From positions 3,312 to 67,311 of the forward strand of contig PKWW01000027.1 in NCBI GenBank assembly GCA_003132165.1: 64,000 nucleotides of DNA. The letters are read 5' to 3'. Positions 9,422-30,146 of the stretch are shown piece after piece. The DNA is from Acidimicrobiaceae bacterium. Lineage in GTDB: Bacteria; Actinomycetota; Acidimicrobiia; Acidimicrobiales; RAAP-2. Numbering within the stretch: position 1 is the first letter of the stretch; each line of letters starts with the position of its first letter. The translations under genes were made by a program, and so were the position numbers. The notes under the pieces are model-generated. The model saw only the letters and a list, made by a program, of their open reading frames with translations, was not told the DNA's origin and made no database searches.

Positions 9422-10102
9422 TCACACCGACAGACGGGCGCTTGCGATAACGGCACCATCGGCGGCCACGATTCGAGCGCTGCGAACCTGAGCGGCGCTC
9501 ACCGTCAAACGAGCCGCCCACGCGCTGTAGTCGCCAGACAGATTGAACCACCCGACCGTCAAAGTCTGGCCGTTGTTCAGCGTGACTTCGCAGGAAACGT
9601 CGCCCGACAACTTTGCGGAATCGACAGTCACGAACATCCACGTAGGCTGATCAGTGGAAATGACTACTTGGCCCATGACCCGTCCGTTCGAGGTGAGTTG
9701 AGCCAGGGCTGGAGCGGCTGCGACGGACCGATTGGGGCTTCCCGTCCCGTTGTTCGAGACAAAGACACCTACGCCGAAGCCGAGAACGGCGACGAGCACG
9801 GCCGCTATCGCGAATGCGCTCACTCGTCGAAATCGTCGTGACCGGTCTCGCTGAGCTGCCTCGCGAAGTTTCTCTGAAAGACGTGACTCAAATCCCAGGG
9901 GCGGCTCAATCTCGGGCGTCAGCATCAATAGCGTGTCCGCTGCGGTCGACAGCGATTCAAGTTCCGCCCCGCAGTGGGCGCAGGACTCGAGGTGATCGAG
10001 GACCTCGGCTCTTTCGCGGCCCGCAAGGATTCCGAGCGCGAGTTCGGCGAGATCATCCTGAACCATCTGACACTTATCTGGGTCTCGCGTGTACTGGCTC
10101 AT
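9422..10102 (-). CDS. Membrane-anchored zinc-finger (ZAS) anti-sigma factor
   Basis: HLESCAHC (HxxxCxxC), one TM helix, extracytoplasmic domain; ATGA overlap with the sigma stop. Confidence 0.88.
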   Translation of the reverse strand: MSQYTRDPDKCQMVQDDLAELALGILAGRERAEVLDHLESCAHCGAELESLSTAADTLLMLTPEIEPPLGFESRLSEKLREAAQRDRSRRFRRVSAFAIAAVLVAVLGFGVGVFVSNNGTGSPNRSVAAAPALAQLTSNGRVMGQVVISTDQPTWMFVTVDSAKLSGDVSCEVTLNNGQTLTVGWFNLSGDYSAWAARLTVSAAQVRSARIVAADGAVIASARLSV

Positions 10103-10677
10103 GGGCTCTCCGATATCACAAGAGTCTCTCGAAGCTTCGCCATCCCCAGCCGAATTCGACTCTTTGCAGTTCCCAATGGGATTGACTCCACGGCCGCCAC
10201 CTCGACAGCTGTCCTCCCGTACATCGCAGCCAGTACAACTGCGCGTCGCTGCTCCATCGGGAGGTTCGAGAGCGCAATCCGAACTCGGGTCATCGCGTCT
10301 GCGGCCAACGCGGTGTCCTCCGGCTGACGCTCGACACTCACGAGCTCGAGGAACACACGATCGTCGGGAGCGACTGGAATACTCCGTCGAATCCGTACGG
10401 CGTCGATGGCCAGATTGCGGGTGATGGTCAGCGTCCACGTTGTGACAGAACCCCGACGTGCATCGAACACCGAAGCGTGCCGCACTATCCGAATGAACGC
10501 CTCTTGGGCAACGTCCTCGGCCGTACCAACGTCGCCAACAATCCCGAATGCGAGTCCGAACAGTCGGCGCTGGTAACGCCGGACGAACGTCAATACAGCC
10601 TGCTCGTCACCTACCGCGATGCCGGAGAGAAGGGTCTCGTCCGAAACCCCTTCATCCTTGCCGTGACGCTTCCTCAT
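10099..10677 (-). CDS. ECF RNA polymerase sigma factor (SigK-like)
   Basis: AEDVAQEAF region 2, RNLAIDAVR, region 4 IPLGTAKSRIRLGM. Confidence 0.92.
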   Translation of the reverse strand: MRKRHGKDEGVSDETLLSGIAVGDEQAVLTFVRRYQRRLFGLAFGIVGDVGTAEDVAQEAFIRIVRHASVFDARRGSVTTWTLTITRNLAIDAVRIRRSIPVAPDDRVFLELVSVERQPEDTALAADAMTRVRIALSNLPMEQRRAVVLAAMYGRTAVEVAAVESIPLGTAKSRIRLGMAKLRETLVISESP

Positions 10678-10685
10678 CGTTAGAT

Positions 10686-10713
10686 AGTACGGCTGATGGG
10701 TCAATTTGGATCA
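10686..10713 (-). promoter_or_regulatory. Putative autoregulated ECF promoter, probably leaderless
   Basis: Minus strand TGATCC-N17-GTACT ending 8 nt before the ATG at 10677; no SD sequence in between. Confidence 0.7.
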
Positions 10714-10813: not shown

Positions 10814-12514
10814 CTATATGAAGTCCTCTTCACGGTATTCACCCTGTGGCCTCCCGTCGATGCGCTCGATTTCTGCGGTGCGTAGTTCGACGCGACGGAT
10901 CTTGCCGCTGATGGTCTTTGGAAGATTAGTGAACTCCAGACGTCGGATTCGCTTGTACGGCGCCAGATTCGCCCGGCAGTGGGCCAGAATCTCGCCGGCG
11001 AGTTCGCGACTCGGCTCGATGCCGACGACGAGTGTGACGTAGGCCTTGGGCACCGTCAGGCGCTTCTCGTCGGGCGCGGGTACGACCGCAGCCTCACCAA
11101 CGGCGTAGTGCTCGATCAGAACGCTCTCCAACTCGAAAGGACTGATCCGGTAGTCACTCGATTTGAACACGTCGTCGGTGCGGCCAATGAACGTGATGAA
11201 GCCGTCGTCGTCGCGCGCCGCCACGTCGCCCGTGTGGTAGCGACCACCGGCGAACGCCCGCTCGTTCACCTCGGTGCTCGAACCGATTCCGGTTTGGTAG
11301 CCGACCATCAAGCCCACCGGTCGGTCCGTTCCACAGCGCACGCAGATCTCACCTTCGTCGGCGACCGCGTCGGTGACGGGGTCGACGAGATCGATGTGGA
11401 ACCCCGGCATCGGGCGACCCATGGACCCCGCCTTCAGGGGCTGGCCCGGCGAGTTGCCGATCTGCAGTGTCGTCTCGGTCTGTCCGTAACCGTCACGAAT
11501 CACGAGACCCCACTCACGACGCACGTGTTCGATCACCTCGGGGTTCAGCGGCTCGCCGGCACTCAGGGCCTCGCGCAGCGACATCGACCACTTCGAGAGG
11601 TCTTGCTGGACCAACGTGCGCCACACCGTCGGTGGAGCGCAGAACGTCGTCACCTTGGCGTCACGAAGGACGTCGAGCATCGCGACCGGATCGAAGCGCT
11701 CGTAGTTGAACAGACAGATTGTCGCCCCCGCGATCCACGGCGCGAAGACGCACGACCAGGCGTGCTTGGCCCAGCCGGGGCTCGACACGTTGAGATGCAC
11801 GTCGCCGGGCTGGAGTCCGATCCAGTACATCGTCGAAAGATGCCCAATCGGATAGCTCACGTTAGTGTGCTCGACGATCTTCGGTAGCGACGTCGTGCCC
11901 GACGTGAAGTACACCAGCAGAAGATCGCTCGCCGCCGTCGGCGCGTCCACATCGAACGCCGTCGAACTGGCATCCGACTCCGTAAAGTCGTGCCAGCCGC
12001 TGACCGGCGCACCGACGGCGACGCGAAGGAAGTCGCCCGGTACGTCGTCGAAGTTGTGCGTCACGTCTGATCGTGCGATCACTGCGCCCGCCTCGGCCCG
12101 GTCAACACGGTCGCGCAGGTCGGCCGGGGTCAGCATCGTGGTCGCCGGTATGAGGACCGCCCCGAGCTTCATCGCCGCGAGGAACGACTCCCACAACTCC
12201 ACCTGATTGCCGAGCAGGACGAGAATTCGCGTGCCGCGCTTGACTCCGAGGTCGCGCAACCAGTTGGCCAGTTGGTTGGAGCGGTGCGAGAGTTGCGCGT
12301 AGGTATACGACGCATCGGTCCCGTCGCCCTCGATTATCCGCAGGGCCGCTCGGGTGGGGTGCTCGGCAACGAGCACACCGTCGAACCAGTCGATCGCGAA
12401 GTTGAAGTGCTCCGGTCGGGGCCAGACGAATTGTTCGTACGCGGTCTCGTAGTCGGAGCGGTGCTCGAGAAGAAAGTCCCGGGCCTTACGAAAATCCTCG
12501 GTCGCAGTAGCCAC
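10814..12514 (-). CDS. Acyl-CoA synthetase (short/medium-chain, acetate-CoA ligase-like)
   Basis: YFTSGTTSLPK, DGYGQTET, YHTGD, TISGKIRR. Confidence 0.92.
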   Translation of the reverse strand: MATATEDFRKARDFLLEHRSDYETAYEQFVWPRPEHFNFAIDWFDGVLVAEHPTRAALRIIEGDGTDASYTYAQLSHRSNQLANWLRDLGVKRGTRILVLLGNQVELWESFLAAMKLGAVLIPATTMLTPADLRDRVDRAEAGAVIARSDVTHNFDDVPGDFLRVAVGAPVSGWHDFTESDASSTAFDVDAPTAASDLLLVYFTSGTTSLPKIVEHTNVSYPIGHLSTMYWIGLQPGDVHLNVSSPGWAKHAWSCVFAPWIAGATICLFNYERFDPVAMLDVLRDAKVTTFCAPPTVWRTLVQQDLSKWSMSLREALSAGEPLNPEVIEHVRREWGLVIRDGYGQTETTLQIGNSPGQPLKAGSMGRPMPGFHIDLVDPVTDAVADEGEICVRCGTDRPVGLMVGYQTGIGSSTEVNERAFAGGRYHTGDVAARDDDGFITFIGRTDDVFKSSDYRISPFELESVLIEHYAVGEAAVVPAPDEKRLTVPKAYVTLVVGIEPSRELAGEILAHCRANLAPYKRIRRLEFTNLPKTISGKIRRVELRTAEIERIDGRPQGEYREEDFI

Positions 12515-13086
12515 TCTTGTCCATCCCTCTGTTGTCGGTGCCAGACTCCTGTTGAAGGCTGTCTACGTTCTAACCCGGGCTCCACGTTGCGTCAAATGCG
12601 CCATCACCCGATTATCGGTCAATCCTCATATTGGAACGTGGACATCTGGTTCGTTGGAAACTGTGATCGGACTTCCTTTCCCTTGCGCCCATTCGGCAAG
12701 CTCGGTTGGAGATGGAGTGCGGCAAATAGCGCTCCACACCGAGCTCTGAACCGAACTATGTCCTACGCGCCGACCGCCGCCAGCGTTTCGGTTGACGCTT
12801 CAACGGGGTGCGCCGGCGGCGAAACAACCGGGTCTTACCTCCCTCCACGTCCAGTACGGAGTTTGTCCCCGGCAGACCTTGACGGGCCAGGTTGAAGGCC
12901 GCGTAATTCATGTGGACTCCAGCATGAACCACCGAGGCGCAGCCCCTAAACAAAAACGTCAGTCTCTCTTTTGACCATCGATGATCAGGAGGTACGCCAA
13001 AGGCAAAGTTGTGACTTTCGACACCTATGAAGGCGGGGCGGTACCCGTACGTTCTAAATGGAGGCTTCACTTACGAAAGGATTTCT

Positions 13087-13485
13087 ATGGGCAGCCAAAA
13101 GAGGAACGAGGGTTTAGGGCTTGTCGCGGCAGTGGCGTGTTGCGGGATGATGCTCGGCGCGTGCGAGCACTGTCGACATGCGAGAAAACAACGTCGACAC
13201 CAGTGCTGTGATGCAAACGAAGGCCCCGGACACAAGCACGGCCACGGCCCTTGCGCCTGTAACGAGCACGGCCCCGGACATGACGAAGGCCCCGGACACA
13301 AGCACAGCCACGGTCCGTGCGCCTGCAACGAACACGGCCCCGGACATGACGAAGGCCCCGGACATCCCCACGGTCCCGGACACGAAGATGATCCGATCAG
13401 GATGCTCGACGTACGCTTCGCCAAGGGTGAGATCGACGAAGCTGATTACCTGCGCCGCCGCGAGATTCTCAAGGGCACGCACTAA
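13087..13485 (+). CDS. His/Cys-rich repeat protein with C-terminal SHOCT domain
   Basis: GAAAGGA RBS-like sequence; C-terminal LDVRFAKGEIDEADYLRRREIL; 17 His and 10 Cys in 132 aa. Confidence 0.8.
   Translation: MGSQKRNEGLGLVAAVACCGMMLGACEHCRHARKQRRHQCCDANEGPGHKHGHGPCACNEHGPGHDEGPGHKHSHGPCACNEHGPGHDEGPGHPHGPGHEDDPIRMLDVRFAKGEIDEADYLRRREILKGTH
13219..13365 (+). repeat. 66-bp in-frame tandem repeat, about 2.2 copies
   Basis: Units begin GAAGGCCCCGGACA at 13219, 13285 and 13351; encode EGPGHKH(G/S)HGPCACNEHGPGHD. Confidence 0.95.
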
Positions 13486-13580
13486 TACGAACATTCACCG
13501 AATGATCGCCGGCTCATTGAACAGAATCAGTGAGCCGGCGTCGGTTGGTCGCGACCTCACTCGAAGTAATGTGCGAGAAG

Positions 13581-15179
13581 ATGGAGCGGACACGAAGTTT
13601 CTGGGGCTGGGGATTCGAAGGCGAAGGTCTGAGCCCCAAGGACGAATTGGCCCTCGCCGCACGAGTCAAGCCATTCATCGAGATGGCGGATGACCGCACT
13701 GCGCCTCCGTCGCCTGACGAAATCAGATTGACACCGTCGCGGCTAGAGCCGCCCGATGTGCTCGCGTCATGGTGCACGACGAACGAACTCGCTCGCGCGG
13801 GTCACACCTACGGCAAGTCGTTCAGCGACATCGTTCGCGCACTCGAGCGCCGCTGGGATCGGCCGCCCGACGTCGTGGCCACACCGAACGACGAAAAGGG
13901 AATCGTCGAAGTACTCGACTGGGCGGCGCAAGTCGACGCCATCATCATTCCCTACGGTGGTGGATCGTCGGTAGTGGGCGGCGTGGAAGCCCCTTCGAAC
14001 GACGACCGTCCGGTGATCAGTTGCGACCTCAGCCGACTGGACCGGGTGCTCGAGATCGACGCCGCCTCACGAGCCGCGCTCATCCAGTCCGGTGTATACG
14101 GGCCATCACTCGAGGATCAGTTACGACCGCACGGCCTCACCTTGCGCCATTACCCGCAGAGTTTCGAGGTCTCGTCGCTCGGCGGTTGGATCGCGACGCG
14201 CTCGGGCGGTCACTATGCGACGTTGCACACTCACATCGACGATTTCGTCGAGTCGATCCGGGCGGTCACGCCAGCGGGACTCTGGGAATCGCGCCGCCTA
14301 CCGGGATCGGGCGCCGGACCCTCCCCAGACCGTCTGCTCCTCGGATCGGAGGGAATCCTCGGCATCATCACCCAGGCGTGGATGCGCTTGCAGGATCGAC
14401 CAGTGTTTCGCGCCTCGGCTGTCGCTAAATTCTCGACCTTCGACAGCGGCGCCCGAGCCGCGCGGGCCTTGGCACAGTCGGGACTCTGGCCGACGAACTG
14501 CCGACTTCTCGACGCGGCGGAAGCGATGATGACCGGAGCCGGCACGGGCGAAGCCCACCTTTTGCTGATCGCATTCGAATCCGCCGACCACCCGGTCGAC
14601 GAGGCCATGGCGAGAGCAACAGAGTTGGCGCACGACCATGGCGGGACCGTCGAGTTGCGGACGAACGGGGCCGACGCCTCGCCCGACGAACGGGCGAACC
14701 CAGCTGACCAGTGGCGTTCCGCGTTCCTTCGCGCGCCCTACACGCGCGACAGTCTCGTCTGCTTGGGCCTCATCAGCGAGACCTTCGAGACCGCGATCAC
14801 GTGGAATCGCTTTGACGAGTTCATCCACGACATCAAGACCACTACCGAAGAGGCCCTCCGGTCGGTGGGCGCCTGGCCGGCCATCGTCACGTGCCGGCTC
14901 ACGCACGTCTATCCCGACGGCGCTGCTCCCTACTTCACTGTGCTCGCACCCGGTCGCGCCTCTGGACGTCTCGCGCAGTGGCGCGAGGTGAAGAGCGCAG
15001 TCATGGCTGCGATTACTAAAGGCGGCGGGACGGTGACGCACCACCACTCGGTCGGACGCGACCACCGCCCCGGCTACGACCTCCAGCGTCCCGAACTCTT
15101 CGCCGCCCAGTTGCGCGCCGCGAAGAGAGTCGTCGATCCCCAGGCCATGTTGAACCCCGGCGTACTCATCGATCCCTAG
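13581..15179 (+). CDS. FAD-linked oxidoreductase, alkyl-DHAP synthase-like (VAO family)
   Basis: SFWGWG start, PYGGGSSVVGG, SLGGWIATRSGG, THHHSVG, MLNPG. Confidence 0.88.
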   Translation: MERTRSFWGWGFEGEGLSPKDELALAARVKPFIEMADDRTAPPSPDEIRLTPSRLEPPDVLASWCTTNELARAGHTYGKSFSDIVRALERRWDRPPDVVATPNDEKGIVEVLDWAAQVDAIIIPYGGGSSVVGGVEAPSNDDRPVISCDLSRLDRVLEIDAASRAALIQSGVYGPSLEDQLRPHGLTLRHYPQSFEVSSLGGWIATRSGGHYATLHTHIDDFVESIRAVTPAGLWESRRLPGSGAGPSPDRLLLGSEGILGIITQAWMRLQDRPVFRASAVAKFSTFDSGARAARALAQSGLWPTNCRLLDAAEAMMTGAGTGEAHLLLIAFESADHPVDEAMARATELAHDHGGTVELRTNGADASPDERANPADQWRSAFLRAPYTRDSLVCLGLISETFETAITWNRFDEFIHDIKTTTEEALRSVGAWPAIVTCRLTHVYPDGAAPYFTVLAPGRASGRLAQWREVKSAVMAAITKGGGTVTHHHSVGRDHRPGYDLQRPELFAAQLRAAKRVVDPQAMLNPGVLIDP

Positions 15180-19259: not shown

Positions 19260-21413
19260 CTAGTGGTTCGCCCGGTAGATGTGATCGACATAGTCGTTCA
19301 CCATTCTCGCTGAGCTGTACATCGGTCCGAGTGAGCGCAGCGACGAGCGCACCCGCGCGAGCCAGCCAACCGGGATGCCGTTGGCGTCGCGTGTGAAGTA
19401 CAGGGTCTTGACCTCGTTCTCCAACAGGTCGTAGAGCGCCTTGGCGTCGCGTTCGTCCTGTTCGCGAGCGTCCTCGACTACCGAACCGTCGATCGCCCAG
19501 CCATTCTGTCCGTTATACCCTTCGCACCACCAGCCGTCGAGCACACTCAGGTTCAGTCCGCCGTTGAGCGCCGACTTCATGCCACTCGTACCACTCGCTT
19601 CGAGCGGAGGTCGCGGCATGTTCAGCCAAACGTCGCATCCGGCGACGAGCTGAGGCGCCACGCGAAGGTCGTAGTCCTCGAGGAACACGACCCGATTGGG
19701 GATATCCAAACCTCGCTTCACGGCGAACATGTTCCTCGCCACTTCCTTCGCCTCGCGGTCGAGCGGGTGCGCCTTGCCCGCGATGATGAACTGGGCGCCC
19801 TGCTCGTGGTCGATGATGCCGCGCAATCGGTCGACGTCGTGGAACAGCAGGTCGAGCCGCTTGTAGGTGGCCAGACGGCGCGCGAAACCAATGGTGAGGT
19901 GCGTGGGGTCAAAGGCGTTGAACGCGGATTCGGCGTGGTCGACCTCTTCGCCCCGAGCCAACCGGTCAACGCCAATGTGACTGCGGATCATCTCAATCAG
20001 GTTGAGGCGCAACTTGCATCGCGTCTCCCACAGGTCAATGTCGGGAATCTCGTCTACGTGGCTCCACAGACCGGGGTCGTCCGCGTGGCGTTCCCAGTCC
20101 GCACCGAAGAACGTCGTGAGCAGACCGCGCATTTCGGGCGCCATCCACGTCGGCAGGTGCACCGCGTTGGTCACGTGTGTGATCGGCACCTGATCCGGCC
20201 CGACACTCGCAAAGAGCGGGTTCCACATCTCGCGTGCCACTTCGCCGTGTCGCTTGCTCACGGCATTGGTCGATCGCGAGCAGCGGATCGCGAGCGGCGA
20301 GAAGCCCAGCGGTTCGCTCGTCGCCGTCGGGTCGATGCGGCTCTCCTCGCTCAATTGCTCGCGCGAGATGCCCATGAGGTCAACGGCCCGGCCGAGCACG
20401 GAGAAGAACTCATCGGGTTCGTAGGTCTCGTTGCCCGCGGGCACCGGCGTGTGGGTCGTGAATACGAAGCGGTCACGACCGGTCGCGAGCAAATCCTTGA
20501 GCTCGAGAGGTTCGCCCGAAAGCCCGGTCGACACTTGTGAGGCGATCTCCAGCGCCGACAGCGCGGGGTGGCCCTCATTGAGGTGGAAGAGTCCCGGCGT
20601 GATGCCCATGGCGTCGAGTGCGCGCACGCCCCCGATGCCGAGCACCGCATACTGCGCCAGTCGAATCTCGTGCGAACCTTCGTAGAGACGAGCGGTGACC
20701 CAACGTTCGAGCGGACCGTTCTCCTCGAGTTCGGCGTCGAGCAGGTAGAGCGGTGTTCTTCCCACATTGACCCTCCACACCTGCGCGGAGAGCTCACCCT
20801 CCCACACGGGAACCGTCACCTTCACGGGCAATCCGTCGGCACCTCGCACTCGCACTGCGGGCAACTGATCAGTGTTCGCTTCAATCCAGTACTCATGCTG
20901 CCAGCCCTCGAGGGTCATCCTCTGGTGCAGATAGCCACGCCGGTAGAGAAGACCCATCGCGACGACGTCGAGCGCTTGATCGGACGTCTCCTTCAGATAG
21001 TCCCCGGCGAGGACCCCGAGGCCGCCCGAGTACACGGGCAATGACGAATGGACGCCGAACTCAGCGCAGAAAAAGGCCACCGGCCCGCTCGCGAGCAAGC
21101 GCTGGGCGGGGCGCTGCATGTGGGCTTCCATGCTCTGAGCCACCTCGGCCACGCAGTCGAGCAAATCAGGGTTGGTCGCGGCGCGCAGCAGGTCACGCTC
21201 GGGAAGATTGAGCAGGAATCGAACGGGATTCTCGCCCGCCAACATGAAGCGATGCGCGTCGATCATGCGGAACATCTCGGGGCCACCCGGGGTCCAGGAC
21301 CACAGGTAGTTGTACGAGATCCAAGCGAGGTCCTCGAGGGGCTCGGGAAGGCGTCGAGCCAGGCGGTCAACTGCGCGGTCCACGTCGCGTGAACCATCAA
21401 AACGCTTGTTCAT
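19260..21413 (-). CDS. glgP: Alpha-glucan (glycogen) phosphorylase, copy 1
   Basis: SGGLGVLAGD, HLNEGH, FARRLATYKR, EASGTSGMK PLP-lysine signature. Confidence 0.95.
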   Translation of the reverse strand: MNKRFDGSRDVDRAVDRLARRLPEPLEDLAWISYNYLWSWTPGGPEMFRMIDAHRFMLAGENPVRFLLNLPERDLLRAATNPDLLDCVAEVAQSMEAHMQRPAQRLLASGPVAFFCAEFGVHSSLPVYSGGLGVLAGDYLKETSDQALDVVAMGLLYRRGYLHQRMTLEGWQHEYWIEANTDQLPAVRVRGADGLPVKVTVPVWEGELSAQVWRVNVGRTPLYLLDAELEENGPLERWVTARLYEGSHEIRLAQYAVLGIGGVRALDAMGITPGLFHLNEGHPALSALEIASQVSTGLSGEPLELKDLLATGRDRFVFTTHTPVPAGNETYEPDEFFSVLGRAVDLMGISREQLSEESRIDPTATSEPLGFSPLAIRCSRSTNAVSKRHGEVAREMWNPLFASVGPDQVPITHVTNAVHLPTWMAPEMRGLLTTFFGADWERHADDPGLWSHVDEIPDIDLWETRCKLRLNLIEMIRSHIGVDRLARGEEVDHAESAFNAFDPTHLTIGFARRLATYKRLDLLFHDVDRLRGIIDHEQGAQFIIAGKAHPLDREAKEVARNMFAVKRGLDIPNRVVFLEDYDLRVAPQLVAGCDVWLNMPRPPLEASGTSGMKSALNGGLNLSVLDGWWCEGYNGQNGWAIDGSVVEDAREQDERDAKALYDLLENEVKTLYFTRDANGIPVGWLARVRSSLRSLGPMYSSARMVNDYVDHIYRANH

Positions 21414-23462
21414 CTAAGAGAATCTAATCGGTGGTACCGAAGTCGCTTCTCGGGTCACGACTGAACTCATGCCGAGCGCTTTAGCCAGTGGCGCCACAAT
21501 GCTGAGGTCTGGCGCAGGGTTCTGTCCGGCAATGGCGACAATCGCTCGCCTGATCGAAGCCTCTCCAATGGGCGTCACGTATCGTGGAGCGCCAGCCAGG
21601 GCGACCAGCACGGCCACTTCGTCTTCGCCGGCCGGATTCGCCAACACCCGTGCCACCAGGAGATTAAGCGCCTCTTCGTAATCTGCGCTGCCCGTACCCG
21701 CCAGCCACGAGGCGCCGACCCTCGCGATGACGTCCGCGCCGAGTTCACCGAGACTGACTTCTCGAATCGCGGTCCCATCGTCGACTCGAACCCGGATGCC
21801 GAGATGTCCGGTCCGCTGCGAGCTTGTTCGAAATTCACGTTCCCGAAATGTCAACGTGTTGGTCAGTGTGACGCGAAGCTCGGCCGGGTCACTCTCGACC
21901 ATCTCAGCCCGCGCTCGCCAGTAACCCCGCTCGATTCGCGCGTGTCCGACACACGCGAGGCGCTCAGCGGCAAAGCCCGCCGCAATCCTCTCCTCGTCGA
22001 AACGAAAGGGGTCGCACGCCAGCGCCCAGAGAACGGACCCGCCGATTCCCGGACGATTCGAGTGGACCCCGCCCAAGTGCTCCAGGAACTCGGGCTCGTA
22101 ATCCTTACCCAACGTCCGGCGAACTATCCCCAGGGCGACCGCCGCGTAGCGCAGAACGATCGACGTCTCGATTTCGGCCGGATCGGCGAAGAACCACGCG
22201 CAACTCGTGAAGCTGTAGAGAAGGTTGCGGTGGACCTCGCAGAATTCGAGCACGAGGGCGACCTCGGCGGCGTCGAGGTCACGAACTGCGCGGGCCGCGA
22301 CGAAGTCGTGGGGATCCACCTCGCCCGAAAGCACTGTTCCGTACTGCAGCAGCGCCTCACCCGACGAATGAAGGTATTCCGCGAGTGCCTGGTCGACGGC
22401 GCCTCCGAGAGTGGCGCGCAACCAGTCGAGCGATTCGCGCAGCGGTTCACGCCAGGTCTGTCGCCAACCCGGCTGCTCACCGGTCACGCATCCGCAGTCG
22501 CTACGCCAGCGCTCGACGCCGTGCGCGCAACTCCACGATGACACTTCGGCGAGTTCGACCTCGTAGGTGGGCTCACGTCGCGCGAGCCACACCCCGAGCG
22601 TGGTCTCGAAACCGTAATGGTGCCGCAGCCGACGAAGTGCCCACGCCAACCCCAAGTCACCGAAGTGGTGGTGATGCCCGTACGTCTCACCATCCGCCAC
22701 GAGCAGCACCGCGCCGTCCTCACCATCGAGTGCACCGGCCATCTCGTCAGCGAGGGCGATCCCGTCATCGATCAGGTCACCGAAGGCCACGCGCTGCGAA
22801 AGACTGCCGTGACCGAATACAACGTTGATCGTGCGCCCCTGCGCGAGTCGGACGAAGTACGCCTTGGACGTGTCGAGCGAATTGGCATCCACCGTTCGCC
22901 ATTCCGCACCAGGCTCGCGCACGCGCAGGACCTGGGTGGGCATGAGGACCGTGTACTGAATACCTTGACGCGCGAGGCAATCGAGGCTCGCCAGATCGAC
23001 TGCGGTCTCGGGCAACCACATGCCGAGAGGCGTGGCGCCGAAACGACGCCGGTAGTCAGCGATTCCCCACGCCACGAGACGCTCCCGGTCGTCGGCGTTC
23101 GCGAGGGGGATGATCGCATGCACGAGCGGCGCGGCGATCATCAGCGACTGCGGCCCTGAGTTGGCGTGGTCCACCTGATACGAGAGTGCCTGATCGACGT
23201 CCGGTGAACACTGCTCCAGCCACCGGTGCAGCGTGGGCCCGATGTCGGTGCTGCTCATCGTGAGGGGTTCGACCAGTTCGGTCGCCGTCTCGTCGCCGTT
23301 GGTGACCGCGACAGCGATCAAAGCGCGGTAGCACTCAGTTGCAATCCGCTCGTTCCAGTCGTGATAGGGCCACGCGCTCCATTCGTTGGTCACCACGCCC
23401 AACCACGGGTCTTCGCGGGGAGGTTGATAGAGGTGCAGGTGGAAGCCGGCGAGTGGTGGCAT
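21414..23462 (-). CDS. GH57 family glycoside hydrolase with DUF3536
   Basis: HLYQPPRE, WLPETA (nucleophile), DGETYGHH (acid/base), WSCAHGVERW. Confidence 0.9.
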   Translation of the reverse strand: MPPLAGFHLHLYQPPREDPWLGVVTNEWSAWPYHDWNERIATECYRALIAVAVTNGDETATELVEPLTMSSTDIGPTLHRWLEQCSPDVDQALSYQVDHANSGPQSLMIAAPLVHAIIPLANADDRERLVAWGIADYRRRFGATPLGMWLPETAVDLASLDCLARQGIQYTVLMPTQVLRVREPGAEWRTVDANSLDTSKAYFVRLAQGRTINVVFGHGSLSQRVAFGDLIDDGIALADEMAGALDGEDGAVLLVADGETYGHHHHFGDLGLAWALRRLRHHYGFETTLGVWLARREPTYEVELAEVSSWSCAHGVERWRSDCGCVTGEQPGWRQTWREPLRESLDWLRATLGGAVDQALAEYLHSSGEALLQYGTVLSGEVDPHDFVAARAVRDLDAAEVALVLEFCEVHRNLLYSFTSCAWFFADPAEIETSIVLRYAAVALGIVRRTLGKDYEPEFLEHLGGVHSNRPGIGGSVLWALACDPFRFDEERIAAGFAAERLACVGHARIERGYWRARAEMVESDPAELRVTLTNTLTFREREFRTSSQRTGHLGIRVRVDDGTAIREVSLGELGADVIARVGASWLAGTGSADYEEALNLLVARVLANPAGEDEVAVLVALAGAPRYVTPIGEASIRRAIVAIAGQNPAPDLSIVAPLAKALGMSSVVTREATSVPPIRFS

Positions 23463-26400
23463 CTAGGACTTTCTCTTGAGCACGACGAGCGACAACGGGG
23501 GGAGAACCACGCGAAGTCCATGCCGGTCGGAGCCGTCACGGGACGCCGGAAACTCGCGCACCCGCAAGTAGCCGCTGCCGCCGAAGTCGGGATCGTCGCT
23601 GTTGGCGACCACAGCCCACGCCGATGACGCCGTGACCGGTATCTCGTAGTCGTCACGGGGGACCGGCGTGAAGTTGGCGAGCATGACGAGTTCCTCGTCG
23701 CCGCTACCGCGTCGCCAGATGAGCACGCTCTGGGACGCGTCATCGCAGCTCAGCCACGCGAAATCCTCCCCTGTGGCGTCGTCACGGTGCAGCGCCGTCT
23801 CATTGGCGTAGAGCGAATTGAGACGGCGTACCCACGACGCGACTCCCCGATGACCCGCGTCTGCGAGTAGATGCCAGTCGAGGGACCGCTCATGATCCCA
23901 CTCGCTGGTCTGGGCGAACTCGTCACCCATGAAGAGCAGCTTCTTACCGGGAATCGTGTACTGGTAACCAAACAGCAGTCTCAGATTCGCCCGCTTCTGC
24001 CATTCATCACCACTCATCTTGGCGAGCAGCGAGCCTTTGCCGTGCACGACCTCATCGTGCGAGAGCGGGAGCATGAAATGTTCGTTGGCCGCGTAGATCG
24101 CACGGAACGTCAGTTCACTCTGGTGGTACTGGCGGTACAGCGAATCGCGTTCGAGATAGTCAAGGGTGTCGTGCATCCACCCGAGGTCCCACTTGAAGGT
24201 GAAACCCAGGCCGTTGCCCGAGACGGGTCCGGTCACCTGCGACCACGACGTCGACTCCTCGGCGACGATCATCACCCCGGGGAACGCCCGGGTCGTCTCG
24301 GAGGTGCACTGGCGCAGGAACTCAACCGCATCAAGGTCCTCTCGTCCCCCGAGACGATTGGGAACCCACTGGCCCGGTCCTCTCGAATAATCGAGGTACA
24401 GCATCGACGCGACCGCGTCGAGTCGAAGTCCATCGACGTGGTATTCGTCAAGCCAGAAGTTTGCGCTTGAGATGAGGAAGCTTCGTACTTCATTGCGGCC
24501 GTAATTGAAGGTCCAACTCTTCCACTCGGGGTGCACGCGCTGTCGCACGTCGGCGTGCTCGTACAGATACGAACCGTCAAAGCGCGCGAGCGCGAACGAG
24601 TCGGACGGGAAGTGTGAGGGGACCCAGTCGAGGATCACGCCGATCCCGGCCTGGTGGAGGTGATCCACCAGGAACTTGAAGTCGTCGGGCGTGCCCATGC
24701 GCGACGTGGGTGCGAAGTAGCCGGTCGTCTGATAACCCCACGAGCCGTAGAACGGATGCTCCATAACCGGCAGTAACTCCACGTGAGTGAAGCCCATCTC
24801 GATCGCGTAGTCGGCGAGCAGTGGCGCCAGTTCCCGGTAGCTCAACGAACGGTCGCCCTCCTCGGGCACCCGCCGCCACGATCCGAGGTGCACTTCATAA
24901 ACGGTAACCGGTCGCTCGCGCGAGTTGCACTGGGACCGGCCAGCCATCCACACCCCGTCATCCCACTGGTGGCTCGAACGCCACACACGCGTCGCCGTCG
25001 CCGACGGGACTTCGAAATAGCGACCCATCGGATCGGTCTTGTCGAACTCCTCACCACCCAGGCGCGAGTGCAGACGATACTTGTAGGCCATCAACGGCTC
25101 GGCCCCGGGCACGAAGCCCTCCCACACCCCTGAACTCTCGCGCGGTGAAAGAGGGTTCTGCGTACCGTGCCAGTCGTTGAAGTCCCCGATGACCGAGACC
25201 CGGTCGGCGTTCGGCGCCCAGACGGCGAAATAGCAGCCCGCGACGCCTTCGACAACCATCGGGTGACACCCCAAGTGATCGTAGAGACGGAAGTGGCGGC
25301 CCTCATTGAAGAGGTGTAGGTCCTCGGCCGTGAACAGCGTCGCGCTCGGCGTCATTCGAATCCCGACACGGTCGTGCACCGCGTCGGGGTAGCCCCGTCG
25401 CTCACTTAGGGGAGCGAGAGCCTTCGCGAGCGTCGTGGAGGATGCCAACTCCTCAAGACTCAATCGCGAGCGTCGGCTCCAGTTCGCACGCTCCGTCGAA
25501 GTGCCCGGCAGGTTGACCGCCAGGGACTCACCCAACAGGTCCTCGAGTTGCACCATGACGAGACCGGCCTCGCTGTCGGCGAGAAAGACGTGCACGGCGT
25601 TGAGCACGGCGTCAGGGCTAGCGTCCTCGGCACAACCGAGCGCACTGATCAGATTGCGACGCTGCGTGGCGCGACGCGCACGGGCCTCTTGCGCCGTCGA
25701 TTCATCGAAGTGACCTAATTGCAATCGCTCGTCAATATCCGTGCCACTCCACCACCCGGCGAAGGTGGCCGTGTCGTGGGTGGCGAACGAGGCCACCGAT
25801 CCGCTCGGAACCTCATCGAGATGCTCGTCGTTGACCGCGTACTGCACGACGTACGTGCGACGGATGCCGTTACTCTGCATCGCGTCACGCAGCTCGTCGT
25901 GCACCGTGCCGAGGTCCTCTCCCACGACGTCGACGCCCGCACGCTGAGCCTCGACGGCCACGACCGCCAGCAGCTCGTCAAAGGGCATGTTGACGTAGAG
26001 TCCCTGCTCCGGCGAGGCTCCCTCGGGTATCCAGAACAGTCGCTGCAGTCCCATGAAGTGATCGATCCGCACGACGCCGGCGACCCGCATGTGAAACTGC
26101 AGAGCCTCGCGAAACTTACTGTGCACGTCATCTCGACATCGGTCGGGGTGAAGCGGCGGCGAGGCCCAACTCTGCCCGCGAGCCGAAAGGTCGTCGGGTG
26201 GTGCGCCGATGGACATGCTCGTGACGTAGTCCTCCGGGTTCTTCCACACGTCATACCCGTAGGGGTGCACACCGACCGGTATGTCCAGTCCCAGCGTCTG
26301 GCCCCGCTGAGCGAGCCGGGACGACAGGTCGGTCATCTGTCCGTCCATGATCCATTGAGCGAACATGTGATAACGAACCAGGATCGGGTCGACGTCGTTC

Positions 26401-27476
26401 CACCGCAGCAGTCCGCTGCGCGCGGTCGAGGGCCACTGGTGGAAATCGAGACCGAAGCGCTCACCGGCGGCGCGAAACCGGGCGTAGTCGTTCAACTCGG
26501 GATGGCCCATCACGTACGAGAGCAATCCGCTCTCCTTTTGGGTCATGAAGTCGCTCTGGGTCGCGGCCCACGCCTGAATGACGTTTCGCTTAGCGGCGAA
26601 GGCCGCGGCACCGTCCACGAGCCCGTCGACGGTCCAGGCCTGACGGTGACGCGGGGAATAGGTCTCGTTCATCAGACGCAGGGCGGCGGGCGACTGGGCG
26701 AGATACTCGACCTGGTCCAGTGCGATCCATCGATCACTCCAGAACCGCCGACTCACCGGTCGGTAGGGACTCGCCTCAAAATTGTCGGGGCCGAATGTCG
26801 CGAGCAGCGGCAAAGTCGACACGACCGTAGCGTGCTGATTGGCGACCAGTCGCGCGAATTCGTCGAGGTCACCAACGTCACCACTGCCCCAACTGCGTTG
26901 CGAGTGCAGCGAGAAGACCGGCGCCTGCACGGAGAAGGCGCGCCAATCCGGTGAGAATCGATGCGACGCGCCACGTATCGGGCGCGCGATGATGATCGCG
27001 CGTACCGAACGGCGCCCGACCGTCACATGCAAGTGGTGGTAGCCCACGCGCATTGCCGGTAACTGAAGGCCCAGGACAGGTTCGTCTCGGCCATCGGACT
27101 TGGGTCTCGCAACTAATGAATCCGGTGACATCGTCCAAGAGATCTCGCCTCCGGACTCGAACTCCAGCCGACACTCCAGATCCGCCCCCCGGCGAGCGAG
27201 GCGTATGGGTACGACCGATTGGCTGCCCTCCTCGACCACGTAGACCGACTCGACGATTCGGTCCGTCCGCTGTTGGCGGAGTTGGCGTGCCACTGCCTTG
27301 GCATCGTTCTGGTTCGAGAGTTCATCGGTATCCCCGAAGGAATTCAGGATGGCCATCAGCACGTCGGGATCAGCGGACCGGAGCACGCCGCGTCCGTCCT
27401 CGTACTCGAGGCCTACGCCACGAAATTCCGCTAACTCGCGTAGCGCCGATTTGATCACGGACTTCTCCGCACTCAT
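23463..27476 (-). CDS. malQ-glgB: Fused 4-alpha-glucanotransferase (GH77, MalQ) and 1,4-alpha-glucan branching enzyme (GH13, GlgB)
   Basis: N half: RIDHFMG, GEDLG, THDTAT; C half: LRLDAVASM, AEEST, LSHDEVVHGK; no stop codon across the junction near 25355. Confidence 0.9.
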   Translation of the reverse strand: MSAEKSVIKSALRELAEFRGVGLEYEDGRGVLRSADPDVLMAILNSFGDTDELSNQNDAKAVARQLRQQRTDRIVESVYVVEEGSQSVVPIRLARRGADLECRLEFESGGEISWTMSPDSLVARPKSDGRDEPVLGLQLPAMRVGYHHLHVTVGRRSVRAIIIARPIRGASHRFSPDWRAFSVQAPVFSLHSQRSWGSGDVGDLDEFARLVANQHATVVSTLPLLATFGPDNFEASPYRPVSRRFWSDRWIALDQVEYLAQSPAALRLMNETYSPRHRQAWTVDGLVDGAAAFAAKRNVIQAWAATQSDFMTQKESGLLSYVMGHPELNDYARFRAAGERFGLDFHQWPSTARSGLLRWNDVDPILVRYHMFAQWIMDGQMTDLSSRLAQRGQTLGLDIPVGVHPYGYDVWKNPEDYVTSMSIGAPPDDLSARGQSWASPPLHPDRCRDDVHSKFREALQFHMRVAGVVRIDHFMGLQRLFWIPEGASPEQGLYVNMPFDELLAVVAVEAQRAGVDVVGEDLGTVHDELRDAMQSNGIRRTYVVQYAVNDEHLDEVPSGSVASFATHDTATFAGWWSGTDIDERLQLGHFDESTAQEARARRATQRRNLISALGCAEDASPDAVLNAVHVFLADSEAGLVMVQLEDLLGESLAVNLPGTSTERANWSRRSRLSLEELASSTTLAKALAPLSERRGYPDAVHDRVGIRMTPSATLFTAEDLHLFNEGRHFRLYDHLGCHPMVVEGVAGCYFAVWAPNADRVSVIGDFNDWHGTQNPLSPRESSGVWEGFVPGAEPLMAYKYRLHSRLGGEEFDKTDPMGRYFEVPSATATRVWRSSHQWDDGVWMAGRSQCNSRERPVTVYEVHLGSWRRVPEEGDRSLSYRELAPLLADYAIEMGFTHVELLPVMEHPFYGSWGYQTTGYFAPTSRMGTPDDFKFLVDHLHQAGIGVILDWVPSHFPSDSFALARFDGSYLYEHADVRQRVHPEWKSWTFNYGRNEVRSFLISSANFWLDEYHVDGLRLDAVASMLYLDYSRGPGQWVPNRLGGREDLDAVEFLRQCTSETTRAFPGVMIVAEESTSWSQVTGPVSGNGLGFTFKWDLGWMHDTLDYLERDSLYRQYHQSELTFRAIYAANEHFMLPLSHDEVVHGKGSLLAKMSGDEWQKRANLRLLFGYQYTIPGKKLLFMGDEFAQTSEWDHERSLDWHLLADAGHRGVASWVRRLNSLYANETALHRDDATGEDFAWLSCDDASQSVLIWRRGSGDEELVMLANFTPVPRDDYEIPVTASSAWAVVANSDDPDFGGSGYLRVREFPASRDGSDRHGLRVVLPPLSLVVLKRKS

Positions 27477-30025
27477 TGGGACCACGTGATCAAGCCGGGC
27501 AGAGCTTCGCCATCGGTGTGCACCGGCGACGGGAGGATTCTCGCCACGAGTTCGACGAGCTCACCGTGGCGAGTCCATTCGACAATCGCCACGTAGCGCG
27601 CGGTCGATCCCGTCCTTTGCGCGAGCGACGCCGACACCGGTCGCGGCGTTGCCCCACTCGCCACCAGCCAAAGCTGCACCAGCAGGTCGGCGGGGTCCAG
27701 CAACCCGAGGTTGACCACCATCTCTATCTGCTCGCTCGTCTCAGATATTGGATTGCGATGGGTGACAGTGATGGCGAGACCCAGCCAGTTCGACCCCAAT
27801 CGCTCCAGTTCCCTCGTCCGGTCACGCGCCGACTTCGCGCCTCCGGATTGAAGCTGTCGGACCTTCACGAGTCCGGGCAAGTAGTACGACTCGGTGTACT
27901 CGCGGGTCATTCGAAGCGAATCCCACGTCGGAGCCAGGGTGGACATCGACTGTTTCACCGCCGCAATCCACGAGCGCGGTACACCGTTGGCGTCGCGGTC
28001 GTAGAACGAAGGGACAATCTCATTCTCCAGTACCTCGTAGAGCGATGCCGCATCCAGCGCGTCCTGGGTCTCCTCGTCGAGGTAAGGACCCGCCGTCCCG
28101 ATCGTGAAGCCAATGGGCGCCGCGGACTCGTTCGCATCGAGGCACGCCTCATCCCACCACCCGTCGACGGTGCTGAAGTTCAGCGCGCCGTTCATGCCCG
28201 CCTTCATACCGCCGACGCCGCAGGCTTCGAGAGGACGACGCGGCGTATTCAACCAGACATCGGCTCCTTGGGCCAATGCTCGATCCATGGTGGTGTCGAA
28301 GTCGACAATGAAGACCACCCGGTCGGAAACCCCGTACTCGGCGGCGAACTCAATCATGTCCTGCAGCAGCAACTTGCCCGACTCATCGTTCGGATGGGCC
28401 TTGCCGGCAAAGACGACCTGCACCGGACGCTCGGTGTTCTTCAACAATCTCGCAAAACGCTCGGGGTCGCTCAAGAGCAGGGTGGGACGCTTGTAGGCGA
28501 CGAACCGTCCAACGAATCCAATGGTCAGCCACTCGGGATTGAGGAGCGTCACCGAGGTCACACGCTCGCTCGGCGCGTGGCGACGCGCCAGCTCATTGCG
28601 CGCGCGGCGTCGAGTGAACTCCACGAGCTCGTTTCGCGCGGCGTTCTTCACTCGCCAAAGTTCTGCATCATCGACCTGCAGCAACTTCGACCACATCACA
28701 GGATCGCCCGGCGTCGTCTGCCACTGCGCGCCTACCGCGGACGTCAGCAGGTCGCTGTACTCGCTCGTCGTCCATGACTCCAGGTGGACACCGTTGGTGA
28801 CGTGGCCGATTGGCACCTCATCGAGTGGTAGACGAGGCCAGAGCTCGGCCCACTGCTCCCTCGTCACGCGCCCGTGCAGTCGACTGACGCCGTTTCGGTG
28901 CCCCGCCATCCTCATGGCGAAGACTGTCGGACAGAATGAGTCGCTCGGGTCGTCCGCCTTGAAGCGGCCGAGCGCCACCAGTGTCTCGGTGTCGACGCCG
29001 AGCTGAGTGGCGTAAGCCGCGAGAAAACGCCGCGCCACCGCGGGAGCGAAGTAATCATGTCCCGCCGCCACCGGCGTATGTGTCGTGAATACGATACCCG
29101 GACGCACCGCAGTGCGAGCCTCATTGAAACTCAAACCCTCCTGGGCCATGGCCCGGCGGATCTGCTCCACGATGGCAAAGACCGAATGACCCTCGTTGAG
29201 ATGAAGGACCTCAGGTTCGATGTCGAGCGCGGCGAGAGCGCGAACGCCGCCGATGCCCAAAATCAGTTCCTGGGAAAACCGGATGTCCACGTCGCTGTCG
29301 TACAGACGTGTCGTCAATGTCTGATCGGCCATCGAGTTCGAATCCACCGCGCTGTCGAGCAAGAGCAGATGGTTTCGCCCGACCTTCGCACGATAGACAG
29401 CGACTTGAACGTCGCGCCCCGGCAGACTTACCGTAACCTCCACGTGCCGACCGTGTGTGTCGCTCGCGCGCTCGATCGGCATCAAGTTCGGCGAAATCAT
29501 GTCCCAGGCTTCGTGTTGGCGCCCTTCGCGGTCGAGCCACTGGTGCGACGTCCCGCGATAGAGCAGCCCGACGCCCACAATCGGTACTCCGAGAGCGCTG
29601 GAGGCTTTCAGTTGTTCACCGGCGACGGTGCCCAACCCGCCCGCGAAGATCGGTAGCGAGTCGGTGAGCGAGTACTCCGCGGCGAAGTAGGCGACGATCA
29701 GGTCCTTCTGGCGGCGGTGCTCGGTCAAGAACCACGAATCATTGGTCCTTAGCTCGTACGTTCGAAAGTCATCGACAACCGACTGCGCCAGTTGAGCGGT
29801 CTCGGGATCCGAATCCATGAGGGCAGTGACCTTGGCCCGTCCGAGACCAAGTAGGAGTTGATGCGGCCACTCCAAAGCGCCGGGACTGGCGTCGGGATCC
29901 AATCTCGCGAAGAGACGCCTGGCTTCAATTTTCCAGGTCCAACGTAGGTTCAGCGAGACGTCGAGCAGGTCGTCATAAATCGCTGCAGAGCGCTTCAGCC
30001 CACCGTTCGACTTCGAAACTGGCAC
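27473..30025 (-). CDS. glgP: Alpha-glucan phosphorylase, copy 2 (long form)
   Basis: AGGLGTVAG, HLNEGH, FVGRFVAYKR, EACGVGGMK; TGA overlaps the ATG of malQ-glgB. Confidence 0.93.
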   Translation of the reverse strand: MPVSKSNGGLKRSAAIYDDLLDVSLNLRWTWKIEARRLFARLDPDASPGALEWPHQLLLGLGRAKVTALMDSDPETAQLAQSVVDDFRTYELRTNDSWFLTEHRRQKDLIVAYFAAEYSLTDSLPIFAGGLGTVAGEQLKASSALGVPIVGVGLLYRGTSHQWLDREGRQHEAWDMISPNLMPIERASDTHGRHVEVTVSLPGRDVQVAVYRAKVGRNHLLLLDSAVDSNSMADQTLTTRLYDSDVDIRFSQELILGIGGVRALAALDIEPEVLHLNEGHSVFAIVEQIRRAMAQEGLSFNEARTAVRPGIVFTTHTPVAAGHDYFAPAVARRFLAAYATQLGVDTETLVALGRFKADDPSDSFCPTVFAMRMAGHRNGVSRLHGRVTREQWAELWPRLPLDEVPIGHVTNGVHLESWTTSEYSDLLTSAVGAQWQTTPGDPVMWSKLLQVDDAELWRVKNAARNELVEFTRRRARNELARRHAPSERVTSVTLLNPEWLTIGFVGRFVAYKRPTLLLSDPERFARLLKNTERPVQVVFAGKAHPNDESGKLLLQDMIEFAAEYGVSDRVVFIVDFDTTMDRALAQGADVWLNTPRRPLEACGVGGMKAGMNGALNFSTVDGWWDEACLDANESAAPIGFTIGTAGPYLDEETQDALDAASLYEVLENEIVPSFYDRDANGVPRSWIAAVKQSMSTLAPTWDSLRMTREYTESYYLPGLVKVRQLQSGGAKSARDRTRELERLGSNWLGLAITVTHRNPISETSEQIEMVVNLGLLDPADLLVQLWLVASGATPRPVSASLAQRTGSTARYVAIVEWTRHGELVELVARILPSPVHTDGEALPGLITWSQ

Positions 30026-30146
30026 ACCACCCTCCTCTGCTCCGTCGCGCGCTGAAAAGTCAAGTGATGGCCCCAAGGCACGTGCCCCAGCCTAACGTCG
30101 AACAGCCATTGTCCCATTAGGAGATTGCGCACGAGCGCGCCCCACG

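Follow-up and report, generated by a model that had tools for sequence, protein, structure and literature searches.

The SHOCT domain occurs in thousands of bacterial and archaeal proteins. To our knowledge, no function is known for any of those that join it to a transmembrane (TM) helix—the TM-SHOCT proteins—and no biochemical role has been assigned to the domain itself. The gene described here encodes one of these proteins. It lies on the + strand of a 64,000-nt stretch of DNA (‘the window’, whose numbering is used throughout) from contig PKWW01000027.1 of assembly GCA_003132165.1, the genome of one of the uncultured Acidimicrobiales, recovered from samples of peat-bog type, and its product, labeled P0001, is 132 amino acids (aa) long. 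Between its helix and its SHOCT domain P0001 carries a disordered linker crowded with His and Cys, and we rate at about even the chance that the protein acts as a membrane-tethered, cytoplasm-facing array of ligands for soft or borderline metal ions. The parts of the gene are these:

13087–13485, + strand: coding sequence of the TM/His-Cys linker/SHOCT protein P0001, 132 aa with no internal stop.
13111–13164, + strand: single TM helix, about aa 9–26 (GLGLVAAVACCGMMLGAC), ending in LGAC (AlphaFold2 helix, hydropathy, lipobox pattern test).
13165–13209, + strand: basic, Cys-containing juxtamembrane patch, aa 27–41 (EHCRHARKQRRHQCC), predicted to be cytoplasmic (5 Lys/Arg, versus 2 in the N-tail).
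13210–13389, + strand: disordered His/Cys/Gly/Pro-rich linker, aa 42–101, candidate metal-binding tract (AlphaFold2 confidence below 55; composition).
13217–13364, + strand: 66-bp tandem duplication (Tandem Repeats Finder, TRF: 2.2 copies, 93% matches).
13219–13284 and 13285–13350, + strand: the two 66-bp units, with a partial third from 13351 (TRF and translation).
13390–13479, + strand: SHOCT two-helix hairpin, aa 102–131 (PF09851; AlphaFold2 confidence 90–96).

As originally defined, a SHOCT domain comprises two short helices, in which a Gly and a Glu are conserved, and lies no more than 50 residues from the C-terminus (PMC3581485). P0001 has all of this. The Pfam SHOCT profile, PF09851, matches aa 102–128 over profile positions 1–27 of 28 (E = 9.9e-6); AlphaFold2, supplied with an alignment of relatives, folds aa 103–131 into a hairpin of two helices (aa 103–112 and 118–131) at a predicted local distance difference test (pLDDT) score of 90–96; residues G114, E115 and E118 are invariant in the alignment; and the domain ends 4 residues from the C-terminus. 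The profile score, 25.6 bits, is 1.4 below the gathering score of 27, but precomputed annotation lists PF09851 nonetheless, and all 31 aligned relatives match it, with E-values as good as 6.5e-10. A search of NCBIfam with P0001 gave no match. Upstream of the hairpin, AlphaFold2 predicts one more helix, aa 11–38, and leaves aa 39–102 unstructured (pLDDT about 46–54). A preliminary description of the locus, drawn from the letters of the stretch, had recognized the C-terminal SHOCT motif, which the profile match and the confident hairpin bear out. It had also taken SHOCT to be a known oligomerization module, and there it went too far: the paper that defined the domain hypothesized oligomerization and put it to a CD4-fusion assay, and the data did not support it (PMC3581485). 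A later comparative study places SHOCT-like domains, by prediction, inside the cell at the membrane's inner leaflet, and ties them to envelope-stress systems (PMC11237479).

The translation (MGSQKRNEGLGLVAAVACCGMMLGACEHCRHARKQRRHQCCDANEGPGHKHGHGPCACNEHGPGHDEGPGHKHSHGPCACNEHGPGHDEGPGHPHGPGHEDDPIRMLDVRFAKGEIDEADYLRRREILKGTH) contains 17 His, 10 Cys, 22 Gly and 10 Pro, in agreement with the length and the His and Cys counts reported for it beforehand. His makes up 12.9% of the protein and Cys 7.6%, versus averages of 2.3% and 1.1% for the genome, in which long open reading frames (ORFs) with high G+C at third codon positions (GC3) stood in for the proteins of its 2.3 Mb. Among ORFs of at least 80 aa, P0001 is the richest credible gene in the genome for His plus Cys; the ORF ranked top, on contig C63, lies off-frame over the PNPase gene, and the others ranked above P0001, judged as a group rather than singly, resemble off-frame ORFs of low GC3. 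The linker proper (aa 42–101, some 60 residues) accounts for 14 of the His and 4 of the Cys, in HxH, CxC and GPGH motifs. This composition is typical of metal-binding tracts, and the preliminary description was justified in calling the tract one of metal-ligand type. Its ‘metallothionein-like protein fused to SHOCT’ is another matter. The tract is no foreign metallothionein, because it is the family's own linker, common to the whole TM-SHOCT branch and here expanded. Over 132 family members, His makes up 15% of linker residues, and 30 of the linkers have three or more Cys. With the linker bounds used for that comparison, P0001 is the second-richest of the 132 (16 His and 7 Cys in 79 aa, where the median length is 39 aa).

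Part of the linker was duplicated recently. The 22-aa unit and the 66-bp tandem duplication behind it, both noticed earlier, are confirmed by the 66-bp period that TRF detects. Unit 1 (aa 45–66) is EGPGHKHGHGPCACNEHGPGHD and unit 2 (aa 67–88) is EGPGHKHSHGPCACNEHGPGHD; both read EGPGHKH(G/S)HGPCACNEHGPGHD, the third copy stops after EGPGH, and nested within the repeat is an 18-nt sub-period, the GPGH motif, in six copies. When aa 40–101 were used to query 5.8 billion proteins for the 22-aa unit, the only protein found was P0001 itself, and so copy number cannot be compared among true orthologs, as had been suggested. The four further assemblies that have the gene belong to the same population, at 99.95% identity or more, and all have the same number of copies; GCA_003133365.1 carries the identical locus. 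Other members of the family have built arrays of other short units: HDHDA in P0081, and HHGPG in P0004, P0015 and P0048. In one clade the pattern ECGHRGHGHCxHC-GH-GH is kept at about 75–86% column conservation, and GH dipeptides come and go among members that otherwise retain ECGHRGHGHCxHC. P0007 has HGHSHGQG where the congener copy in G007 has HGHGHGHGEG. Variation driven by repeats, as envisaged earlier for metal capacity, thus holds across the family so far as the length of the tract is concerned, through independent arrays and insertions or deletions.

A single-sequence search of 1.84 billion cluster representatives gave only 21 hits and a profile search 829; those with names come from Acidimicrobiales, Streptomyces and others, and are labeled ‘SHOCT domain-containing protein’ or ‘putative membrane protein’. 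Among these matches at least 35 sequences form a distinct subfamily, from uncultured Acidimicrobiia and from metagenomes, nearly all of them metagenomic; of the same-genus genomes searched, five have one. Its members begin with an N-tail of 7–13 residues, often M-E-C-E-N-C, followed by a single TM helix of mostly small residues, a KHRR-type basic patch, often with Cys, a disordered linker of 40–88 aa rich in His, Cys, Gly and Asp, then GPGR..DP, and then SHOCT. The CxxC start, M-(E/D/K)-C-E-N-C, is present in P0019, P0034, P0053, P0057, P0062, P0068, L004 and others, in a tail predicted to lie outside the membrane, and in these relatives it might pair an outer site with the His/Cys tract within. 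Full-text searches of the literature (SHOCT, DUF2078, COG3462, and SHOCT with metal) turned up no description of a Cys/His-rich SHOCT branch. The suspicion that the protein was undescribed is therefore right as to the branch and wrong as to the family, which is known: by its sequence, P0001 is an undescribed variant of the functionally uncharacterized TM-SHOCT proteins, with a subfamily of at least 35 around it, and not one of a kind.

Two further proteins were noted. The source genome encodes a second TM/His-rich/SHOCT protein that has no Cys (G000:C18:19840–19989, − strand; L021, 7992–8378), parts of which read …PRAHDHHHGAPGPHDAHPGPQG…RILDERFAKGEIDADEY…, and whose orthologs in congeners adjoin genes for an MBL-fold hydrolase, Hsp20 and rhodanese. 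P0005 is a metagenomic protein of 3420 aa in which 14 separate stretches match P0001; the best of them falls on the SHOCT region, and the protein may therefore carry SHOCT hairpins in tandem.

How might such a protein work? The N-tail of 7–8 residues would sit outside, the helix (about aa 9–26) would span the inner membrane, and the remainder would be cytoplasmic: the basic Cys/His patch against the membrane, then the disordered His/Cys tract, then the SHOCT hairpin. The tract would bind Zn, Ni, Co, Cu(I) or Cd on the cytoplasmic side, at the point where such ions pass into or out of the cell, and, since the location is cytoplasmic, its thiols would stay reduced. Like a metallothionein or Hpn, the array could serve locally to buffer metal, to sequester it or to pass it on, and the hairpin could keep the array close against the inner leaflet or attach it to a partner. 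Its capacity would evolve by slippage and duplication of short units, and the gene would be transcribed by itself, from a promoter with a 14-nt box under a dedicated regulator. A disordered tract next to a confidently predicted hairpin is what one would expect of metallothionein-like tracts in their apo form. In Haloferax, silver induces a membrane protein with a SHOCT domain (PMC10694973); this and the metal-gene signatures at 8 of 79 generic TM-SHOCT loci are weak hints of a connection to metals in the wider family, and another weak hint is a subfamily lineage in which FTR1 and DtxR-type genes lie alongside. We propose more tentatively, and with some doubt, that the Cys/His-rich TM-SHOCT proteins are an undescribed class: membrane-tethered, disordered, metallothionein-like proteins of uncultured soil and peat Acidimicrobiia, controlled by a regulator that recognizes the TKACYTTSGNCMCY box and tuned in capacity by repeats.

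A number of observations count against a metal-binding array. Metal binding is a candidate activity read from composition alone, and the topology is read from charge alone, by the positive-inside rule. The His and Cys columns of the family alignment are no better conserved than other columns, from which it follows that composition, rather than a set of defined sites, is what is kept. P0001 itself begins MGSQKRNEG, without the CxxC that many relatives have; the helix of P0001 and those of 17 of its 35 subfamily relatives satisfy a lipobox pattern; and a PDB sequence search with P0001 returned low-complexity matches to the tail of a calcium-channel gamma subunit and no relative with a solved structure. 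Nor do the surroundings help: none of the neighbors listed below for the window is a metal gene, and a crude motif scan of the 5 kb around subfamily loci found a metal pump or multicopper oxidase at none of nine.

Among the explanations that compete with this one, the most drastic is that the ORF is not a gene, either because it arose by chance over a DNA tandem repeat or because the overlapping Thr/Ala-rich frame, 13178–13693, is translated in its stead. The GC3 of the ORF, 0.67, would suit this idea, since it is below that of the neighbors (0.77–0.81) and close to that of the alternative frame (0.66). Everything else makes it vanishingly improbable. The sequence and profile searches found homologs for the P0001 frame only, 829 of them by profile, with the whole architecture kept, and the SHOCT fold is predicted with confidence. 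The two 66-bp copies differ at five positions, four of which are synonymous in the P0001 frame and one of which changes Gly to Ser; the same differences alter four residues in the Thr/Ala frame, five in the third forward frame, and two, three and five in the reverse frames. The Thr/Ala frame, moreover, has no Pfam match and would run through a terminator hairpin into the next gene. Since homologs occur in one frame and the repeat differences there are mostly silent, P0001 is a genuine gene, translated in the frame that the preliminary description chose.

The other two rivals accept the gene and disagree about what the protein does. The hydrophobic N-terminus ending in LGAC, pointed out earlier, is real (aa 9–26 are hydrophobic, and MLGAC at aa 22–26 fits the PROSITE-type lipobox, [LVI][ASTVI][GAS]C following an n-region and an h-region), and the membrane tethering proposed on the strength of it stands as a predicted anchor, by hydropathy and the AlphaFold2 helix. 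The preliminary description went on to call the protein a lipoprotein. In that case a type II signal peptide would be cut before Cys26, and the lipidated tract, with SHOCT, would end up outside as a metal sink. LGAC in its context does conform to the lipobox rule, as do those 17 of 35 in the subfamily, and K5 and R6 could supply an n-region, but we consider this improbable. The Cys that would be lipidated is replaced by W, F or R in close orthologs: P0025 has SAC and P0026 SAW; L004 has GAC, P0023 GAW and P0034 GAF; P0028 has IGCC and P0029 IGRC; and the G007 copy has GAC where P0007 has GAR. Five Lys/Arg occupy the 15 residues after Cys26, and up to nine do so in relatives, enough to block Sec export and to mark the cytoplasmic side, and the N-tails of most relatives are neutral or acidic. 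The basic flank of a TM helix faces the cytoplasm, according to the positive-inside rule. Across the 132 members, Lys plus Arg average 1.19 in the whole N-tail and 3.16 in the 15 residues after the helix, and are more numerous on the C-flank in 100 and on the N-flank in 7; there is a family-wide KHRR consensus at the position of the patch, P0001 reads RHARKQRR after its helix, and P0018 reads KCARRRRRARRARHH. Because basic residues cluster on the C-terminal side of the helix, the orientation would be N-out/C-in, and the C-terminus of P0001 is probably cytoplasmic. This agrees with the prediction that SHOCT-like domains are intracellular and close to the membrane, which the exported form would contradict (PMC11237479). 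The remaining rival is a stress protein or sensor instead of a metal store, with helix and SHOCT as the working stress or assembly module and the linker as a tunable spacer, or as a switch, triggered by pH, redox or metal, that alters the contact of SHOCT with the membrane or a partner. Helix and SHOCT are indeed conserved while the linker drifts; the His-only paralogs adjoin Hsp20, rhodanese and MBL-fold genes, and one subfamily copy Hsp20 and DUF3040; the one other box in this genome stands ahead of genes that, by eye, look like acetyltransferase, deacetylase and universal-stress genes; and SHOCT-like domains are tied to envelope-stress systems (PMC11237479). We nevertheless think it rather unlikely. 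Extreme and maintained enrichment in His and Cys, with CxC and HxH, is hard to square with a spacer, no partner gene is conserved, and a second copy of the box is within chance expectation (about two per genome).

The flanks of the gene hold four further features:

13012–13025, + strand: conserved upstream box TGACTTTCGACACC, about 75–80 nt before the start (invariant alignment columns).
13054–13059, + strand: candidate −10 element CTAAAT, assigned from the invariant A....T at alignment columns 83–87.
13076–13081, + strand: Shine-Dalgarno-like AAAGGA, 5 nt before the ATG; its AGG core is invariant in the upstream alignment.
13507–13540, + strand: terminator-like hairpin, an inverted repeat with a 14-bp perfect stem and a 6-nt loop, 22 nt after the stop.

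The start codon at 13087 is backed by the AAAGGA sequence, by the alignment of homologs, and by gene calls in four other assemblies, each of 132 aa. An ATG at 13027, further upstream, was considered and rejected; it has no Shine-Dalgarno sequence and sits in the conserved non-coding region of the box, and relatives begin at the equivalent of 13087. The box emerged from an alignment of eight upstream regions, from different genomes and metagenomes, and is also found upstream of P0002 and of the G007 copy. Its 14-nt subfamily consensus is TKACYTTSGNCMCY; most loci have TGAC(C/T)TT(C/G)GCCCCT, and P0002 has TTACCTTCGACCCT. It occupies the same position at every subfamily gene checked (L016, L017, L019, L020, L024, L027, L030, L031, L033 and L164), and is absent upstream of the His-only SHOCT paralogs. 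A transcription factor probably binds it, level with the −35 region or slightly upstream, and, being a promoter element specific to the subfamily, the box implies a dedicated regulator. The counterparts of the −10 element in relatives are sAGAaT and GATAAT, 22–23 nt after the box rather than the 28 nt here; a sigma-70 scan called no + strand promoter, CTAAAT included. RNAalifold found no structure in the conserved leader, and Rfam found nothing in 12300–13700 apart from a chance match (E about 1), so what is conserved is DNA, not a riboswitch.

Degenerate matches to the box number two in the 2.3-Mb genome, and from its information content we estimate that about two would occur by chance. The second copy (G000:C27:60875–60888, − strand) lies outside the window. 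It has the same layout of box, −10 and Shine-Dalgarno sequence, and stands 85 nt before a gene for a 218-aa GNAT-like acetyltransferase, with genes for a deacetylase-like protein and a universal stress protein next in line (all three identified by eye); given the chance expectation, it is a lead to co-regulation and nothing firmer. In 201 genomes of the order the box has 68 matches, versus 12 for a control, many seemingly inside genes, and among the 30 loci inspected none has a SHOCT gene downstream. As a marker of an order-wide regulon the box was therefore rejected; it is informative within the subfamily.

Downstream, the hairpin folds as RNA at −35.3 kcal/mol (z = −5.7), and none of 200 shuffled sequences folded as well. 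It has no U-tract, and a terminator scan that depends on a T-run did not call it; it is probably a terminator of the kind that lacks one. Because it follows the stop, the gene looks monocistronic, a stand-alone unit with its own box. The next gene, for a FAD-linked oxidase, has a longest ORF that begins inside the hairpin, at a GTG at 13530. Public gene calls start it at about 13545, just past the hairpin, and its orthologs (MEKIRNFWGWGFEG) suggest that the true start is a later ATG, near 13581–13593.

The neighbors in the window are varied. They include an ECF (extracytoplasmic function) sigma gene and a zf-HC2 anti-sigma gene, two acyl-CoA synthetases, the FAD-linked oxidase, an LLM oxidoreductase, a pyruvate-kinase-like protein, NAD biosynthesis genes and a glycogen cluster. 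Elsewhere the subfamily keeps different company: FTR1, a DtxR-type regulator, DUF3040 and Hsp20 in one context; hydantoinase with a peptide ABC transporter, or SnoaL with an LLM oxidoreductase, in others; and V-type ATPase with a short-chain dehydrogenase, or DUF1810 with a HAD hydrolase, in others again. In congener G023 what precedes the ortholog of the downstream FAD oxidase is a DMT transporter, and a SHOCT gene is absent. The P0001 gene is not positionally conserved, and it has no conserved partner gene in the loci compared. For generic TM-SHOCT proteins, a contig scan by SHOCT peptide pattern only, which recovered mostly Streptomyces proteins, supplied a crude neighborhood count: by motif, a P1B-ATPase or multicopper-oxidase signature lies within 5 kb at 8 of 79 loci. 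With contexts so unrelated, and none of nine subfamily loci near such signatures, the neighborhood gives no support for a metal role in this branch.

Three features of the window deserve mention for themselves. The ECF sigma gene overlaps that of the membrane anti-sigma factor, which has a zf-HC2 zinc finger (HxxxCxxC), at 9422–10704 (− strand), 2.4 kb upstream of P0001; control of the P0001 gene by this sigma factor was considered and set aside, since the box with its spacing is unlike an ECF −35/−10 layout and no link was found. Between the divergent acyl-CoA synthetase gene and P0001 is an unusually long non-coding stretch, about 570 bp (12515–13086), in which public gene callers place a 51-aa minus-strand ORF at about 12756–12911 that has no family match; at the P0030 locus the gap in the equivalent place is 1.3 kb. 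And the glycogen cluster (19260–30076) contains, at 23463–27485 (− strand), a fusion of 1339 aa that combines a GH77 4-alpha-glucanotransferase (MalQ), CBM48, and the catalytic and C-terminal domains of an alpha-amylase; on its flanks are two DUF3417-type glucan phosphorylases and a GH57/DUF3536 protein.

In this branch the variable part is evidently an array of ligands, which offers a tractable way into an orphan family, and the conserved promoter box offers a handle on a dedicated regulator. If the array does bind metal, a branch of the widespread SHOCT family would for the first time have a concrete function. The few cytoplasmic metal buffers of bacteria, metallothioneins and Hpn among them, would gain a membrane-tethered counterpart, and the protein would be a component of metal homeostasis in the abundant, uncultured Acidimicrobiia of peat. 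If it does not, P0001 is merely an unusually low-complexity member of an orphan family.

What does P0001 resemble? Transporters of the CDF/ZnT, ZIP and RcnA kinds have disordered, HxH-rich loops at the cytoplasmic face that bind the metal transported. P0001 differs in bearing its tract on one helix, with no transport domain, and it is because the tract resembles such His-rich loops that P0001 gives a weak and spurious match to the ZIP family (PF02535; E = 0.54, 9.9 bits versus a cutoff of 35.1), a low-complexity match to the His-loop that we discarded. The GHHPH repeats of vertebrate histidine-rich glycoprotein and the octarepeat of the prion protein bind Zn or Cu in proportion to their copy number. 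They too are short units of Gly, Pro and His, comparable to GPGH in P0001 and HHGPG in P0004, P0015 and P0048, but the proteins are unrelated, secreted and eukaryotic.

Bacterial metallothioneins (SmtA/BmtA, PF02069; MymT of Mycobacterium tuberculosis) share with P0001 the combination of CxC and His, small size and, probably, an unfolded state without metal. P0001 matches no metallothionein family in Pfam or NCBIfam; only 7.6% of it is Cys, outnumbered by His, and it is anchored in the membrane. Hpn and Hpn-2 of Helicobacter pylori, and the tails of SlyD, HypB and UreE, are cytoplasmic, His-rich stores or delivery tails for Ni and Zn. The tract of P0001 is of the same character—low in complexity, His-rich with some Cys, disordered and predicted to be cytoplasmic—but without homology to them, and those proteins are soluble, with neither TM helix nor SHOCT; His is 13% of P0001 and about 47% of Hpn. 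Its demonstrable kin are the TM-SHOCT proteins (PF09851, formerly DUF2078; COG3462, ‘predicted membrane protein’), whose layout of N-terminal TM helix, linker rich in Gly, His and Pro, and C-terminal SHOCT hairpin it shares, and from which it stands apart by an expanded linker with seven Cys, a juxtamembrane Cys/Arg patch, a 22-aa unit of its own and, in common with its subfamily, a DNA box upstream.

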